Source: an uncultured Arcobacter sp.
Lineage (GTDB): Bacteria; Campylobacterota; Campylobacteria; Campylobacterales; Arcobacteraceae
Reading direction: 5' to 3'
DNA: 64,000 bases
Assembly: GCA_965140705.1 (NCBI GenBank)
Contig: OZ223300.1
Location: 128,001 to 192,000, forward strand
Made by a program: the position numbers. Of this stretch, positions 21,001 to 51,000 are shown one piece after another; positions within the stretch are counted from its first letter, which is position 1; every line of letters begins with the position of its first letter.

Positions 21001-24000
21001 GAGACAAAAATAAAACAACTATGTCATCTTGGAGAAGAAAAAAAGCTATTGGCTAATTATACATATAATTTAAGTTCAGAAACATTATTTGATGAAAACA
21101 AAGAAGCGGTAAAACTTACAAGAAAAGAGAGACGTTTTATATCCCTTTTAATTAAACATGAAAATAAAATGACTCCTTTAGAGTATATAGAAGATTATGT
21201 TTGGGAAGGAGAAATGACAACTTCAGTTGGAATTAGATCTATGATTAAAAGATTAAGAGCAAAACTTCCAGAGGGGATGATCGTTTCACAACACTTTGGA
21301 TATGAAATAAAAACCTTTTAAATATTCTATAAAGATGAAAATCCAATCATTTTGCCACAAAATTTTTATATAATTTTTTGATTAAAAGAAAGGAGGATTC
21401 ATTTTTTCTCTTTTTGTTGCCTTTTTAGCTCATGGAAAATGGATAGCTTATTATGGGGAAAATGAAGAGAAACAAGCTTTAAATAGCAAATCATTAATTA
21501 TTAATGAGAGGTCAAAGGCAGATATGAAATCTGTACTAGTTGACTATAAAAATGGAACTTATGGTAGGGCTTTAAAAAGAATGGTAAAGTCTAATTTATA
21601 CCATTAAGTAATGTGATTTTGAATTTATAGCTAATAAGATTGGTAAATAAATTTAAAATTTTGATGGTCTTTTGACTTAACAATATAAACAATAAAAAAA
21701 TCAAAATAAAATAAAATCAAATAAGCTGCAAGATGAGAGTCTTGTAGCTATTTTTTATTAACCGTGGCAACCAACTCCTGTGTATGATTGATAAACTTTG
21801 TTTAATTCAATTCTTATTCTTTCCATATCAAAAGGTTTGGATAACTCTTCTGGCATATCAATGTGATATATAGCTCCATCTTTTCCAACTAAAAATAGGG
21901 CTTTTGTTAAGCAGTTTTCTAAAGTACCACTTACTATTTTTGTTCCATACATATTTCCATAATCTTCATTGATATCAAAAACAGGAAGTATTTTTTTAAA
22001 TGTATAGTCAAGGTCAATCTTTTTATCAAATATCAAATAAGTAAATATTTCAACTTTTGCATCATTCATAAACTCATCAAAAGCTATAATTTCTTCTTTA
22101 AAATCTTCAAAATTTGGAAATGATAAAAGAATCTGAATCATTCTATTTGGACTTGCTTTTTTTATAGTTAGCTCATTACCTTGTAAATCTACAGCTTCAA
22201 TATCTTCAGCCATATATCCCACATCTATAAATTCATCAATGAGTTCAAATTCTTCATTCTTGTATTTCATTTGTTATTCCATATTTATTGATTTTATAAC
22301 CCATTTGTCTAAGTGTTATTCCTAGCTCTTTTGCAGCATTTGATTGGTTGAAATTATTTGCAATCAAAGCCTCTTTTATAGCCTCTTTTTCCATATCTTC
22401 TAAGCTTTTTTTATGGCTTGCTTGTTTTGAAGAAGCTATTGGTTTATCTTCTAATTTCCCTTTTTCTAGTGCAGGAAGAAGTAGTGACATATCAAAACTA
22501 TCTATGCCATTTTCATTACCCATTAAAACAATTCTTTCCATAGTATTTTCTAGTTCTCTAACATTTCCAGGCCAAGGATAAGCTGCCAATATATCCATAG
22601 CTTCATCTAATATTTTCACCTTTTTTTTATGGTTTTTAATGGCTCTCTCTAAAAAGAAATTAACAAGTTGTTTTATATCATCACCTCTTTCTCTAAGTGG
22701 TGGTAAATCAATTGGAATTACATTTAATCTATAATATAAATCTTCTCTAAATTTTCCCTCTTTTACCATTTGTTCTAAGTTTCTATTTGTAGCTGCAACT
22801 AGTCTAACATTTACTTTTATGGTTTTACTTCCACCTACTCTTTCAAACTCTCGCTCTTGTAGAACTCTTAGAAGTTTTACTTGTGCAGAAGATGAAATAT
22901 CTCCTATCTCATCCAAAAATAAAGTTCCCTTGTCTGCTAATTCAAATCTTCCTTTTCTAGTCTCTCTCGCATCTGTAAAAGCACCTTTCTCATGACCAAA
23001 AAGTTCACTTTCAAGTAAGGTATCAGTAATAGCTGCACAGTTCAATTTAATAAAAGGCTCATTTGCTCTTTTACTTCTTTTATGGATTGCAGCAGCAACT
23101 AGCTCTTTACCAGTTCCTGTCTCTCCTCTTACTAATACAGTAACCTCTGATTGGGCTATTCTTTGTATTACTTGAAAAACTTGTTCCATTTTTGGACTAT
23201 CCCCAATGATATCTCCAAAATTGTGAACCTTTGAGTCCCATTCCATTTTATAATATGATTTCAAATCTTCTAATCTTTCTTTTTCTTTTATGTTTAGTTG
23301 ATAAGAGTAGATAGTTTGTGCAAATATTGAACCAATAATTGTAAGTATTCTTACACAATCTTCAAATCCTATTTCCGTACTTTTAGTAAGAGCAGCACCC
23401 AAAACACCAACAGTTTCATTTTCAACAACTAAAGGAACAGCTACATATGAAAGATTTGAAAAATCTCTTTTCCCTGATTTGTTTAAAAATAGTGAATCAT
23501 TGTGAATATTTTCCACAACAACTGGTTCTTTAGATAAAGCTGCAACTCCAGTTGCTCCTTCACCTACTTTATAAACTGATAGTTTTTTTTGAATAGTTGA
23601 TAGTTCAACTGAAGCAAATACTGTAAGTAAATCATCTTCTAAAATATGAACTGTACAGTTTGTAAGATTTAGACTATTTTTCAAAATCTTTATTGATTTT
23701 TCAAGAGAAGTTTCCAAATCATAATGATTTGATATTACTGCTGAAATTTCATAAAGTGTTGTTAATTCTCTAAGTGTTAAACATGAGTTACAGGCTGTAT
23801 TATCAAATAATGACATGAAAAATCCTTTTTAATAATAGTATAACATACTGAATACAAATTCATAAATAATTTTGTATATTTTATATACAAACAGGTTTTA
23901 ACTGTTGAGTTTTTTACAAACTTCTTCTTTAGGTAAATTTTTTGGACCTGGTTGTATCCACCATGTTTCACCATTAGAAAGTTCACATTCTCCACCCCAA

Positions 24001-48000: not shown

Positions 48001-51000
48001 ATTTATTTTGATATTGATATCTTCACCAATATCTACAAAAAAATCAGGAATAATTTGTACATTGTTATTCATATAGTTTACAGCAGGGGGATTATTAAAG
48101 TATTTTATTATCTCTTTTGCATCTTCAAATCTATGGTGTGCTGCATACTTATCCAAGTGAGAGATATCTTTAATAATCTTTTTTATGAAGTTATATAATT
48201 CATCATCAATTTTTTTATCACAGGCATCTAATTGAAAAAGAAATGACTCTGATAAATCTCTTGATCCAATTCCACTTGGTTCTAAAAGTGAAAATCTTTG
48301 TCTTATAGATTCAACATACTCTTTATATACATTACATGTTTTAGCTATTTTTTCTATATCTCCTTCAAAATATCCCTCTTCATTTATATCACAAATAATC
48401 TCCATAGCTACTTTTTGAGAGTTTGGAGTTGAAAAATTTGGAGCACATATTTGTTCACTTATTACATCATTTAAAGACTCGTTATAAATTGCCAAAGATT
48501 CAATAAACTCTCCACTAGTTCCTTGTGGCATAAAGTTTGCATAAAACTCTTTTGGTTTTTTAATTTCCAAAAATGGATTTTCATAAGAGACATTTTTTAG
48601 ATGTTTCTCTAGGTCTTGAAGTGAAGATTGTAGCATTGGTAGCCACAGTTTCAAAGATAAGTTAAGATTTTGCTTTTGTGAAGCTGAAGTTGATAATGTT
48701 TGTGCCATTATGATATTTTGCCCAAATTCAGAAAGAATTTGGACATTTCCTTGTTTATTTTTTAATACTTAATTCTAATAACACCATTAGGCTTAACTAT
48801 TTTCATTTGGCAAGACAATCTTGTTTTATCAGTTGCTGTACCTACACAATTCTCTTTGATTACTTTAATTTCTTTTTCATTTATTGGAGAAATAAACTCC
48901 ATACCTTGTTCAATTTCAACTACACATGTTCCACATTCTCCATCTCTACATCCAAAAGGTAAAGCTGAACCTGATGCTTCAACAACATCTTGAATTGTAC
49001 TCCCTGGTTTAACATTTATTGCTAAAAAATCGTTTATTATTTCTACTCTAGTTGTCATTTATTTTCCTTTTAAATTGTCCCAATATTGCTACTCCCCTTG
49101 AAATACTGTTTCAATAGGAGCCCAGCAAAGGGATCTAAATTTATTAACTTCTTTTTACACAGGAAATAAATTCCTTTAAAAGAAGCAAACCCTAAAGGGA
49201 ACAACGAATTGTTCCTTTTCAATCTTCTTTACTTTTATCAGACGAATCTACTTTTTTTATTTTAATATATATGGTTTTACTAAAATATCACCTTTGATTA
49301 ACATCATTGGTGCAATTCTAACTTTTGGGCTGATTGTAAATTGTTGACATTGTAAAGCTTCATCAGAAGTGATTGCTCCCAATTTAACTAATACATCTAA
49401 CTCTTCATCTTCCATATAACTTGTAGGTTCTTCATCTGCAAGATTTTCAACATAGATTAAACTTTTTGCATAATCTTTCGTATCAGATACAAGAGGAACA
49501 CCTTTCTCTTTAGCCAATCTAACAATTGGTTCACCGATTTTTGCATCATAAATACCATCAGTAACAGTATCAAAATGCATAAAAATAACTTTTGCCATAT
49601 TTTGTCTCCTTTTTTAGCTTGTTTTCTTCATACAAACCAAGCCATATGATAAAGTTCTAAAAACTCTTTCATCTGACTTGGTTAATAATTTAATCTTTTG
49701 AATAGTATTTTTCTCTATGTTTCCTCATAAATTCTAACTCTTCTTCTACTTCATCCCTATAATCTTCCATTGCTTCTAGTTCATGTTCTCTACACCCTAC
49801 TATTTCAACTGGAACATCCAAAAGACCTAAAAAGTGAACTTCATATACTCGAATTACTTGTAAAAAATCACCCATAGATTTGATATATCCAATCGCACCT
49901 GCTGGCATTAGTTGTGCTCCAATTGGTGCATGGGGATAGGTTCCATCATTGACTATCTCTTTTAGAAGTTTAACTTTTTGACCTATTCCAAACTTTGGTT
50001 TGTCTTCATCTTTTCCTGAACGACCTGCTGTTACACTATCATGAAGAGGTGTGTTAGCATCTACGATATCTTTATGATCAACACCCACAACTTCCTCCTG
50101 CTCCTGTTGGACTTGGACTACAAGAAGAACAACCTTCTAATTTCCCAGTCTCATACATATTCCAAACATCTGCAGCACTTGGTGAGTGTCCATTTTTATA
50201 ATCACCATAAACTCTCAACAGAGAAAATTTCAAAAATTCTAAAAGTTTATTTTCTTCAGTAATTGAAGATAAACCTTTTTTTATAAGTGTTCCATACTCT
50301 TTCATCATATGAAATCTTTTTACATTGATTAGTTTTTGGTCAAAATCTATATCAAAAAATTTAAAAAAATCTTCTGTATCTCTCAATTTATAAAACTCTT
50401 CTATTGTTTTCATTTTATATCCTTTAAAATGTCCCATTTTAAAGGGACCTTATTTTATTTTTCATCTACTTTTTAACAGGATTTGTGAAAAATCCTTAAA
50501 AGTAGCAAAAACTAAAGGGTTTTAAGAATAAAACCTTTTTTTAAGCTGGAATCTCTTCTTTTAAAGAGTCAATCCATTTTGATACTCTTATTTCTGTTTT
50601 ATCTTTTTCATTGTGTTCGTCTATTGCTAAACCACAAAGTTTTCCATCTATTTCTGCTTGTGAATATTCATACTTATAATCACTTGCATCTACAAAACCA
50701 ACAACATTTGCTCCAGCAGCTGTAAAGGTTTTGTAAAGTTTTCCTAAAGCTGAACAGAAGTGTTCACCATGTTTTACACTATCTCCTGCCCCAAATAAGG
50801 CAATAGTTTTCCCTGAAAAATCAATACCATCTGATTCTATTTCAAGTAAAGGATCAACCCACTCAAAATATACATCACCTTGTCCCCAAGTAGAACTTCC
50901 AATGAAAAGAACATCATGTTCAAGCATTTGATCTATATCATCAAAATCTTCTTCCATATTAATCACTTCTTCCACATCAAAAGCTTCTGCTAAAGCATTT

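Follow-up and report, generated by a model that had tools for sequence, protein, structure and literature searches.

The sole rpoN gene of this uncultured Arcobacter sp. very probably encodes a σ54 dedicated to nif, of a lineage that is separate from the housekeeping and flagellar σ54 of the Campylobacterales and is carried in nif clusters. Most likely it serves only to switch on nif genes, together with the activator NifA. Nif-specific σ54 paralogs are already known in the alphaproteobacteria; the new point is that this protein, as its tree places it, is not the flagellar σ54 of Campylobacter and Helicobacter and belongs to a distinct nif-linked clade. The window analyzed here is a 64,000-nucleotide stretch of contig OZ223300.1, and its features are listed in Table 1.

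The rpoN gene and its operon

The rpoN product scores 579 bits against NF004602 in an NCBIfam search (cut-off 506), and the Pfam domains AID (41.5 bits), CBD (114.3 bits) and DBD (159.9 bits) lie on one chain, each above its cut-off. Searching all six frames of the 3.10-Mb genome with Sigma54_DBD returned one match, rpoN itself, as an earlier note on this DNA had stated; with this one copy, a second, general σ54 is absent. The gene's reported proximity to nifHDK, with NifA in the same region, was also recovered, the rpoN stop codon lying 5.8 kb from the start of nifH and 7.3 kb from that of nifD. Near the C-terminus, σ54 proteins carry an RpoN box with the consensus ARRTVAKYR, which reads VRRTITKYR in this genome and in 23 of 25 sequences of its clade (B2, below). 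Region I and the HTH hold clade-specific residues, which set the protein apart from the flagellar RpoN of Campylobacter jejuni and Helicobacter pylori.

The gene order nifX...nifW-nifZ-ferredoxin-rpoN, with rpoN last, is kept in at least four families. Of 17 loci from other families, 14 have the copy that most resembles the window's RpoN directly after nif genes and an adjoining ferredoxin gene; among 80 public loci with a Sulfurimonadaceae-type copy, 77 have the adjoining ferredoxin gene and 76 have nif genes. The hairpin in the ferredoxin-rpoN spacer has a minimum free energy of -14.4 kcal/mol (z -5.7), and a stable hairpin of differing sequence occurs in seven of eight loci with a spacer of 41-63 nt. 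Neither a σ54-type nor a convincing σ70-type promoter of its own was found for rpoN.

Table 1. Features of the window bearing on σ54 and its predicted targets
Feature	Position	Strand	Evidence or sequence
Predicted promoter, 35 nt before 4Fe-4S ferredoxin (12203-12586)	12621..12636	minus	TGGAACACTATTTGCA; 22.4 bits
Predicted promoter, 35 nt before SIR2-like, ClpX-like and GNAT genes (12645-15157; Pfam)	15192..15207	minus	AGGAACGGTTTTTGCA; 22.3 bits
NifA-like activator	22254..23816	minus	GAF, AAA+ with GAFTDA loop, HTH_8; sole full bEBP of genome
Predicted promoter, 97 nt before aldo-keto-reductase-like and FrdA-like genes (24122-26882)	26979..26994	minus	AGGAACACTTCTTGCA; 22.7 bits; top matrix match of genome
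nifH (40721-41635), orf119, nifD (38721-40187), nifK (37175-38719)	37175..41635	minus	TIGR01287, TIGR01282, TIGR01286, all above cut-off
Predicted promoter, 41 nt before nifH	41676..41691	minus	TGGAACGCTATATGCA; 20.3 bits
rpoN, nif-linked σ54 (415 aa)	47461..48708	minus	NF004602; Pfam AID/CBD/DBD; clade B2
11-bp hairpin	48719..48745	minus	In 53-nt ferredoxin-rpoN spacer; end about 10 nt 5' of rpoN ATG
2Fe-2S ferredoxin	48762..49058	minus	Pfam Fer2; directly 5' of rpoN
nifX, DUF269, flavodoxin, nifW, nifZ, orf113	49257..51900	minus	Pfam; 5' of ferredoxin-rpoN, same strand
Predicted promoter, 34 nt before nifX	51934..51949	minus	TGGAACACTATTTGCA; 22.4 bits
nifN (54825-56120), AI-2E transporter, orf305, nifE (58777-60123)	54825..60123	minus	Pfam Oxidored_nitro; nifE-type match
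Predicted promoter, 30 nt before nifN	56150..56165	minus	AGGAACACTATTTGCA; 22.4 bits
Predicted promoter, 80 nt before nifE	60203..60218	minus	AGGAACGCTTATTGCA; 20.5 bits
Predicted divergent promoter, 33 nt before NifX-like ORF (60277-60663)	60229..60244	plus	TGGAATGGATTTTGCA; 17.8 bits
Predicted promoter, 34 nt before nifB (start 63946; nifB domains detected; runs past window end)	63897..63912	plus	AGGAACGCTATATGCA; 20.3 bits

Distribution and phylogeny of the nif-linked σ54

Among 184 Arcobacteraceae genomes, that of the window included, which are related and thus not independent, 67 contain the RpoN DBD and 70 a nifD/nifE-type match; 66 have RpoN together with nif, and 113 lack the two. Four genomes have nif only (G120, G139, G143 and G145; 220-350 contigs, 77-97% complete), and the one with RpoN only (G073, 96% complete) retains a 39-residue C-terminal rpoN relic. 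With fragmented assemblies and a relic as the exceptions, the earlier note's description of RpoN as all-or-none with nitrogenase in the family stands. The same is true of the pattern in its counts (RpoN in 65, nifD in 67 and both in 64 of 183 genomes), which differ from ours by one or two owing to thresholds; its example of RpoN without nifD (G123) falls, because the contig that bears the rpoN fragment of G123 bears nifE as well. Seven genera (g2, g7, g10, g13, g17, g19 and g22) are mixed for both traits, and the co-distribution within them agrees with the proposal that σ54 belongs to the nif set, is dedicated to it, and is gained and lost with it. The distance from rpoN to nif is 2-15 kb in most family genomes, close to the 3-10 kb noted earlier for genera g1, g2, g10, g17 and g19, but in g13 it runs from 35 kb to more than 1 Mb rather than 250 kb, yet rpoN there still follows nifN-nifX...nifWZ-ferredoxin. 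In G073 what remains is a 128-bp rpoN end, and some 7 kb away lies a flank that shares synteny with the border of the G067 nif island, and in G049 in-frame stops interrupt both rpoN (three) and nifD (one). This relic and this stop-riddled copy show the joint decay of rpoN and nif.

The association extends beyond the family. When it was tested as a prediction in two other families (f7 and f11), all nine genomes with one RpoN were without nifD, and G234, with two, has nifD; in f4, two of five genomes have both RpoN and nif and three have neither. Both types of RpoN occur together in f7, f9 and f11, in at least 14 genomes. Other families also keep a second copy, housekeeping or flagellar, and the window's family only the nif copy. 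Since the nif-linked lineage also stands beside a housekeeping copy elsewhere, the family rule is a special case of an order-wide one.

In a tree of 50 RpoN sequences, the nif-linked copies and all copies of the window's family form one clade (support 99/94), and a second clade (98/84) unites the housekeeping copies from ten families; the root was set by six long-branched outgroup sequences, for which the meeting of long branches was flagged. Within the nif-linked clade, the RpoN of the window falls in B2, and B1 is a large Sulfurimonadaceae-type group. The RpoN and NifN trees share a 100/100 split between B1 and B2 and a misplaced G361. As the two trees agree, the nif cluster and the σ factor move together, and as NifN mirrors the deep B1|B2 split, the link of rpoN to nif is older than that split. 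The concordance includes one cluster moved between families and, with the relic and the stop-riddled copy where nif is lost or broken, supports the view that rpoN is gained and lost with nif.

The gene might instead be the original, vertically inherited housekeeping or flagellar σ54 of the family, stripped of its flagellar role and kept only where nif required it, from which the nif-linked copies of other families were later acquired. The protein is plainly a σ54 of the Campylobacterota type: among 1.84 billion representatives it scores 208 bits or more within that phylum and no more than 175 bits outside it. In B2, copies from the family are mixed with copies from other families, which would allow export from the family, and an excerpt of PMC9321776 dates the loss of flagellar regulators to the Arcobacter ancestor. 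We nevertheless consider this origin unlikely, because the nif-linked clade lies outside the ten-family housekeeping clade and not among the family's expected neighbours, because the nif link predates a split that NifN mirrors, and because B1 is a large group of its own that shares the ferredoxin-rpoN arrangement with B2. The statement that σ54 is not a flagellar sigma factor here can be kept and refined: the factor represents a separate nif-linked lineage rather than the family's former flagellar σ54 in a new role.

NifA and the predicted promoters

Transcription by σ54 requires a bacterial enhancer-binding protein (bEBP). A whole-genome search with Sigma54_activat yielded one strong match, NifA (261.6 bits), and six others below 30 bits; it revealed neither an FlgR-type activator nor a second bEBP, and NifA is the genome's only activator with a GAFTGA-type loop. 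Its Pfam domains are GAF (33-167), Sigma54_activat (203-369) and HTH_8 (471-512), and it scores 517.3 bits against TIGR01817, below the cut-off of 528.85, in what is by far its best-scoring family. The loop reads GAFTDA rather than GAFTGA, as in four of four orthologues examined from other families, and an excerpt of PMC4641369 describes GAFTDA as a tolerated variant in Desulfovibrio. NifA-type matches of at least 221 bits occur in 63 of the 184 family genomes, all 63 RpoN-positive. The REC-AAA+ regulators tested in two RpoN-less genomes (G009 and G161) have no GAFTGA-type loop, and genus g22 has a second candidate bEBP-like gene (113-115 bits). The truncated activator beside glnD/amtB, previously suspected of using σ54 as well, lacks the GAFTGA loop and has homologues in 154 of 184 genomes, throughout RpoN-less genera (for example 11 of 11 in g21 and six of six in g4), which lifts that earlier reservation.

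The nif region contains ten predicted -24 (GG)/-12 (GC) sites of the form [TA]GGAAY-N5-[TA]TGCA, each placed 30-97 nt ahead of a start codon. The pattern used in the earlier note, TGG[ACT][AT][ACT]N5TTGC[ACT], has five intergenic matches with the crude longest-ORF gene calls of our genome-wide scan, not six; nifH, which it was said to miss, is included among the ten sites recovered with a relaxed core pattern and with an independent matrix. That matrix, for which all 15 training sites came from other genomes, transfers to this one: its top eight matches genome-wide, and ten of its top 18, fall in the nif region, which makes up 2% of the 3.1-Mb genome, and these are intergenic and correctly oriented. 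The site before nifX has the same position in four other genomes (G356, G130, G131 and G133), and similar predicted sites precede nifH in G067 and G049. Outside the nif region, no top-scoring matrix site precedes a flagellar gene. With NifA as sole activator with a GAFTGA-type loop and all strong -24/-12 sites in the nif region, the proposed dedication to nif gains support.

The classical NifA upstream activator sequence is TGT-N10-ACA. It occurs in none of the ten 260-nt stretches at the predicted promoters (random expectation 0.73), nor was a shared upstream motif found before them, and NifA binding is thus unsupported by sequence.

Less probable still is a general σ54 whose regulon would extend to nitrogen assimilation, stress and the envelope, and whose place in the nif cluster and co-distribution with nif would reflect hitch-hiking on a mobile island. 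Linkage alone could produce such a distribution, rpoN being linked to nif in most genomes; moreover, genes other than nif lie in the region (Trk potassium uptake, a KdpDE-like two-component system, a PAS chemoreceptor, a hydrogenase and Mo uptake), and a few weaker motif matches precede non-nif ORFs elsewhere (C2:297467, C1:52147 and C1:71532). However, σ54 needs a bEBP and NifA is the only one with a GAFTGA-type loop, the top eight motif matches all lie in the nif region, and G406, with no nif gene within 9 kb of rpoN and nif on another contig, has kept rpoN, while its family mates without nif lack it. That rpoN has no function here, being either a silent passenger or a copy in decay, as the G049 stops and the failure to find a promoter for it might suggest, is highly improbable given an intact frame with all three domains and RpoN box, full-length conservation at 57-98% identity across sampled genera, and a NifA and ten conserved -24/-12 sites that would otherwise be left without a sigma factor.

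A proposed nif-dedicated transcription system

These features suggest a mechanism in which RNA polymerase containing the nif-dedicated σ54 would bind about ten promoters 30-97 nt before nif operons, the proposed targets being nifHDK, nifX through the ferredoxin gene, nifN, nifE, nifB, nifV and four accessory operons. Promoter opening would occur only upon ATP hydrolysis by the single activator, NifA, through its AAA+ domain and GAFTDA loop, with GAF as sensor. Because rpoN lies downstream of the predicted nifX promoter on the same strand, it probably gains NifA-driven transcription; active NifA would thereby raise rpoN expression in a positive feedback, which the hairpin just 5' of the start codon may damp and which a basal rpoN promoter would have to start. 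In Rhodobacter capsulatus, nifR4 (rpoN) is nif-specific, lies in a nif cluster, is transcribed together with the nif genes that precede it and is controlled by NifA.

Comparable paralogs are described elsewhere. According to excerpts of PMC11999139, Cereibacter (Rhodobacter) sphaeroides RpoN1 is nif-specific and activated by NifA, the flagellar genes depend on another paralog, and promoter position -11 helps separate the two promoter classes. Likewise, in two-copy relatives of the window's genome nif promoters end in TGCA and flagellar promoters in TTGCTT (TGGAAY-N5-TTGCTT; seven sites in five genomes, four of them Sulfurimonadaceae-type). Unlike that excerpted case, ours concerns another phylum and a family with the nif paralog alone, and specificity is read from sequence rather than from mutants. 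In Mesorhizobium loti, the abstract of PMC3538637 describes rpoN2, a second rpoN on the mobile symbiosis island ICEMlSymR7A with nif and nifA, as essential for nitrogen fixation and the chromosomal rpoN1 as dispensable. The joint movement of rpoN and nif suggested by the RpoN and NifN trees resembles that account, which concerns a symbiotic alphaproteobacterium and an integrative conjugative element; the position of rpoN after nifWZ-ferredoxin, unlike that of rpoN2, is particular to the Campylobacterales. Encoding and inheritance with nif, as in the RpoN1/RpoN2 class, are seen here in synteny, co-distribution and concordant trees. The RpoN of Campylobacter jejuni and Helicobacter pylori, partnered by FlgS/FlgR, belongs to the same protein family and has the same short form of about 415 aa, and the -24 element of the window, TGGAAC, resembles that of the flagellar TGGAAC-N5-TTGCTT found in relatives; the window's protein differs in its clade, in the lack of an FlgR-type activator and in having no non-nif sites among its top matches.

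In all 80 loci of the Sulfurimonadaceae type, the RpoN box of the nif σ54 has its Thr, elsewhere invariant, replaced by Ser, Val or Leu. The promoters of this σ54 are without the initial G of the hallmark GG doublet (T[AC]G[AC]AY-N5-[TA]TGCA), as seen before rpoN in 57 of 64 sites, before nifE in 35 of 36 and before nifN in 30 of 30. We tentatively suggest, as a possibility somewhat short of even, that the nif clusters of the Campylobacterales are self-contained transcription modules, each with its own σ54, a NifA with the GAFTDA loop and a promoter dialect, insulated from the flagellar σ54. If so, the Sulfurimonadaceae-type cluster would be the clearest case, a natural orthogonal pair of σ54 and promoter.

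Excerpts of two papers (PMC2147049, PMC9321776) state that Arcobacter lacks RpoN, FlgRS and FliA, and the rpoN gene described here contradicts the printed statement of RpoN loss. With the flagellar σ54 and its partners gone from the family, a genome has σ54 if and only if it has a nif cluster. Should the module reading be correct, the window's family would have kept this module as its sole σ54 system, made up of a single sigma factor, a single activator and some ten promoters.

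The sigma-54 system of the nif region

According to NCBIfam and Pfam scans of the open reading frames (ORFs), the nif region begins at about 12.2 kb, occupies the rest of the window and continues to contig position ~197,200. The product of rpoN possesses all three sigma-54 domains and scores 579 bits on the NCBIfam equivalog NF004602, whose cut-off is 506. In a six-frame search of the whole 3.10-Mb genome, Sigma54_DBD was matched once, which, with rpoN lying among nif genes, bears out an earlier note's observation that the sole sigma-54 is encoded within the nif cluster. The same type of search with Sigma54_activat returned one strong match, NifA (261.6 bits), and six others below 30 bits. 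The AAA+ loop of enhancer-binding sigma-54 activators (bEBPs), normally GAFTGA, reads GAFTDA in this NifA and in four orthologues examined from other families; a study of Desulfovibrio describes GAFTDA as a tolerated variant (PMC4641369).

One of the weak activator matches lies beside glnD, amtB and glnB, and it had been suggested that this truncated activator may use sigma-54 too. In the 249-residue protein the Walker A motif is accompanied by a Fis-type helix-turn-helix (HTH), and the GAFTGA region is lacking. Homologues occur in 154 of the 184 genomes of the Arcobacteraceae (hereafter, the family), with or without RpoN. Since they are present in every genome of RpoN-less genera (g21, 11/11; g4, 6/6; g20, 5/5), this protein cannot depend on sigma-54. 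NifA-type matches of at least 221 bits were obtained in 63 family genomes, every one of them RpoN-positive. Regulators of REC-AAA+-HTH_8 architecture (~453 residues; 162 bits on Sigma54_activat, two of the three scanned) are found in the RpoN-less genomes G009 (locus L030) and G161 (L031); in G050 (L032) such a regulator is the second copy. No GAFTGA-like loop was found in these three regulators, which, by what is established for proteins of this sort, are sigma-54-independent. A second bEBP-like gene is also present in genus g22.

Features of the nif region and of the shortened activator relative (window positions, on G000:C1:128001-192000, unless stated otherwise)
Feature	Position	Strand	Context
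SIR2-like, ClpX-like (zinc finger + AAA_2), GNAT acetyltransferase operon	12645-15157	minus	strong predicted sigma-54 promoter at 15192-15207
NifA	22254-23816	minus	beyond the mod/Mop sets
806-residue fusion ORF	27074-29494	plus	FAD/NAD(P) pyridine-nucleotide-disulfide oxidoreductase (residues 1-444) and NiFe hydrogenase small subunit (488-794)
Hydrogenase large subunit	29491-31158		after the fusion ORF
Two mod/Mop gene sets		minus	after nifK in transcription order
nifH, orf119, nifD, nifK	41635-37175	minus	
PAS chemoreceptor, KdpDE-like two-component pair, trkHA (Trk potassium uptake)	41917-47321	minus	between rpoN and nifH
rpoN	47461-48708	minus	after the ferredoxin gene
Hairpin	48719-48745	minus	z -5.7; ends ~10 nt before the rpoN ATG
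2Fe-2S ferredoxin gene (fdx)	48762-49058	minus	directly before rpoN
orf113	49257-49598	minus	between nifZ and fdx; without Pfam family
nifX	51505-51900	minus	then DUF269, flavodoxin, nifW, nifZ, orf113
nifN	54825-56120	minus	then ankyrin-repeat protein, nitroreductase-like protein, three unnamed ORFs
nifE	58777-60123	minus	then unnamed ORF and AI-2E transporter
Repeat proteins	53487-53939; 60587-61645; locus L075 3854-4846		ankyrin; Sel1-repeat + NifU-domain fusion; leucine-rich-repeat
nifV promoter site	contig 193417		just beyond the window
249-residue bEBP relative	G000:C3:491383-492129 (locus L074 3384-4133)		flanked by an unnamed ORF and by glnD; amtB-glnB runs divergently

Several details of gene order deserve record. 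In genome G069 a PAS chemoreceptor gene sits between fdx and rpoN. A relationship of orf113 to the adjoining ferredoxin was considered and rejected, the two having zero BLASTP similarity; in genus g13 the slot of orf113 is occupied by a weak second ferredoxin-like match. The leucine-rich-repeat protein is encoded between nifV and nifQ. The pair of SIR2-like and ClpX-like genes adjoins nif genes in G356 and G067 as well, and the operon to which it belongs may exert post-translational control of nitrogenase.

Predicted -24/-12 promoters and the proposed control of rpoN

The promoter pattern of the earlier note gave few matches, and a scan for the core motif identified ten sites of the form [TA]GGAAY-N5-[TA]TGCA in the nif region. 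A matrix built from these sites is circular, and it was therefore replaced by one trained on 15 sites upstream of nifX, nifN and nifE in other genomes, with none from the genome under study. When the whole genome was scanned with this foreign-trained matrix, the top 8 matches, and 10 of the top 18, fell in the nif region. All ten are intergenic (one inside a spurious crude ORF call) and lie on the right strand, 30-97 nt before the start codons of a 4Fe-4S ferredoxin gene, the SIR2-like/ClpX-like/GNAT operon, an oxidoreductase pair, nifH, nifX, nifN, nifE, a NifX-like gene, nifB and nifV. Like sites occur upstream of nifH in G067 and G049. Elsewhere in the genome there are weak matches 262 nt before nuoA and before an AAA_5 ATPase gene and two small family-less ORFs, all of which score below the eight strongest nif-region sites. 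In loci from other families the strict pattern matched few positions, owing to divergent -24 or -12 elements. None of the ten upstream regions contains the classical NifA site TGT-N10-ACA, and a search of these for palindromes and 7-mers yielded no convincing shared motif. The sigma-54 holoenzyme is unable to open promoters without a bEBP. NifA being the only bEBP, the regulons of sigma-54 and NifA should coincide and consist of the ten predicted nif-region operons.

The rpoN gene lies on the same strand as, and downstream of, the nifX promoter, 53 nt after fdx. Nothing comparable to the ten sites was found before nifA or rpoN, nor any -24/-12 site directly before fdx, and a sigma-70 promoter and terminator scan around rpoN was uninformative, with fewer promoter-like sites than in shuffled sequences. 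A stable hairpin occupies the fdx-rpoN spacer. Seven of eight short-spacer loci possess a hairpin at the same place (z -5 to -7; L014, L016, L026-L028 and L156 among the loci, absent in G356), the structure being conserved and the sequence not. This hairpin may act on rpoN as an attenuator, at the level of transcription or of translation. Transcripts that start at the nifX promoter and continue into rpoN would constitute a feedback that the hairpin dampens, and an additional basal promoter would presumably serve rpoN.

Distribution and ancestry of the nif-linked sigma-54

Of the 184 family genomes, among which G000 (the genome of the window) is counted, 66 have RpoN together with a nifD/nifE-type match, and 113 have neither. 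Four have nif without RpoN (G120, G139, G143 and G145, assemblies of 220-350 contigs), and the only case of RpoN without nif, G073, is a 39-residue relic. These counts uphold the all-or-none rule proposed for RpoN and nitrogenase; approximately one third of the family's species genomes possess RpoN, and these are the nitrogen fixers. Seven genera are mixed for both RpoN and nif, so that the association arose or was kept many times, with the provisos that related genomes are not independent and that gains and losses were counted as mixed genera only.

A class-wide search of 251 genomes revealed that many genomes of other families carry two RpoN copies, one 45-64% and the other 40-44% identical to the RpoN of the window. 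For 17 of the more similar copies the surrounding 20 kb was retrieved. Fourteen of these loci have rpoN directly after nifE/nifN, nifX, DUF269, nifW, nifZ and the same ferredoxin gene; the remaining three comprise G406, with nif on another contig, and two genomes of family f2 whose copy is of the housekeeping type by tree. In three genomes of genus g13, rpoN lies 230 kb to more than 1 Mb from nifD and is still in the nifN-nifX...nifWZ-fdx-rpoN arrangement.

In a careful tree of 50 sequences, rooted with six distant library sequences, nif-linked and housekeeping RpoN form two sister clades. Besides all 11 family copies and nine that are nif-linked in other families, the first (support 99/94) includes those of G406 and G234; the second (98/84), with 22 housekeeping copies, spans ten families and takes in the second copies of the two-copy genomes. 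The long outgroup branches were flagged, which makes the root the weakest part of this tree. A quick tree of 94 rows is consistent with the two-clade result. In the careful analysis the family's own copies were monophyletic in 0 of 200 bootstrap trees. A phylum-level RpoN search for an outgroup returned the same order only. Among 1.84 billion representatives, no protein of the Campylobacterota type scores below 208 bits and none of the others above 175, a gap which argues that the nif-linked lineage arose within the Campylobacterota type. Together, the data show that a nif-borne sigma-54 lineage is present across the order Campylobacterales and that nif clusters there carry their own sigma factor.

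The rule extends beyond the family. As predicted beforehand, nif is absent from nine of nine genomes of families f11 and f7 with a single RpoN, and nifD is present in G234, which has two copies. Within family f4, nif occurs together with the nif-type RpoN as sole copy in G356 and G406; both nif and RpoN are absent from G187, G251 and G299. When species genomes were scanned with aligned copies of the Sulfurimonadaceae type, 80 loci (L076-L155) were obtained, titled Sulfurimonas, Sulfuricurvum, Sulfurimonadaceae, Sulfurovum and others. Of these, 76 contain nif genes, and three of the other four have less than 420 nt upstream of rpoN; a ferredoxin gene precedes rpoN in 77 (median gap 186 nt).

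The careful trees built for RpoN and for NifN, on one set of 16 loci, have in common a 100/100 split between B1, a Sulfurimonadaceae type, and a type B2 comprising the family, f11, f4 and G361. The last belongs to family f7, yet has a B2 cluster in both trees. Joint decay is seen as well. The nif-less G073 keeps the last 128 bp of rpoN (L068, on G073:C51, 1911-2038), and about 7 kb away L068 9245-15970 matches, at 78-81% identity, the left flank of the nif island in G067, a member of its genus; the remnant looks like a scar of island loss. In G049, of the window's genus (L156, G049:C7:100000-114500), in-frame stops interrupt rpoN (three), nifD (one) and the PAS chemoreceptor gene (one), and nifH, nifK, nifW, nifZ and the ferredoxin gene are intact; these stops could also be assembly errors. 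The interval from rpoN to nifH in this genome holds neither the trk nor the two-component genes. The concordant trees, the cluster of G361, the relic and the stops agree with the proposal that this sigma-54 is dedicated to nif and is gained and lost with it.

A possible promoter dialect in relatives and the significance of a nif-borne sigma factor

A nif-type promoter lies directly before rpoN in 64 of the 80 B1 loci, an arrangement that would fit autoregulation. With the first-G position left free in the search pattern, B1 promoters read T[AC]G[AC]AY-N5-[TA]TGCA: the spacing and the TGCA end are kept, and the first G of the GG doublet is replaced by A or C upstream of rpoN (57 of 64 sites), nifE (35 of 36) and nifN (30 of 30). 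These observations derive from L076-L155 and also from L018, L020-L023 and L025. Seven flagellar promoters from five two-copy genomes (four of B1 type) read TGGAAY-N5-TTGCTT, once AGGAAT-N5-TTGCTT. The -24 element would be read by the RpoN box, where one position is Ser, Val or Leu in 80 of 80 B1 proteins; Thr takes this position in all 22 housekeeping proteins and in 24 of the 25 of type B2. Clade-specific residues also occur in region I and the HTH. At the sequence level this looks like co-variation of sigma factor and promoter, which would insulate nif from flagellar control. The dialect is possibly new, and resembles the discrimination at -11 between RpoN1 and RpoN2 of C. sphaeroides, as described in PMC11999139. 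If functional, the altered -24 element and RpoN box of the Sulfurimonadaceae type would represent a natural re-coding of sigma-54 promoter recognition.

The kind, a nif-specific sigma-54 paralog, is already known, with nifR4 of R. capsulatus as a third example, and the Campylobacterales lineage adds to it. The other two are RpoN1 of C. sphaeroides, with NifA (PMC11999139), and the rpoN2 gene of the M. loti symbiosis island, which is essential for fixation (PMC3538637). Literature searches, in a collection with few subscription journals, found no report of nif-linked rpoN in this phylum, nor of rpoN and nifH jointly for the queried taxa. A. butzleri is described as being without RpoN in PMC2147049, and the general statement in PMC9321776 that all Arcobacter species are without it is corrected by the present data. 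Possession of its own sigma factor accounts for the ability of the cluster to work after transfer into hosts without sigma-54 or with a differently tuned one. The nitrogen fixers of the family also harbor a very small natural sigma-54 system, comprising a single sigma factor, a single activator and about ten predicted promoters, which could be used to study sigma-54 transcription or to transfer nitrogen fixation from one host to another.
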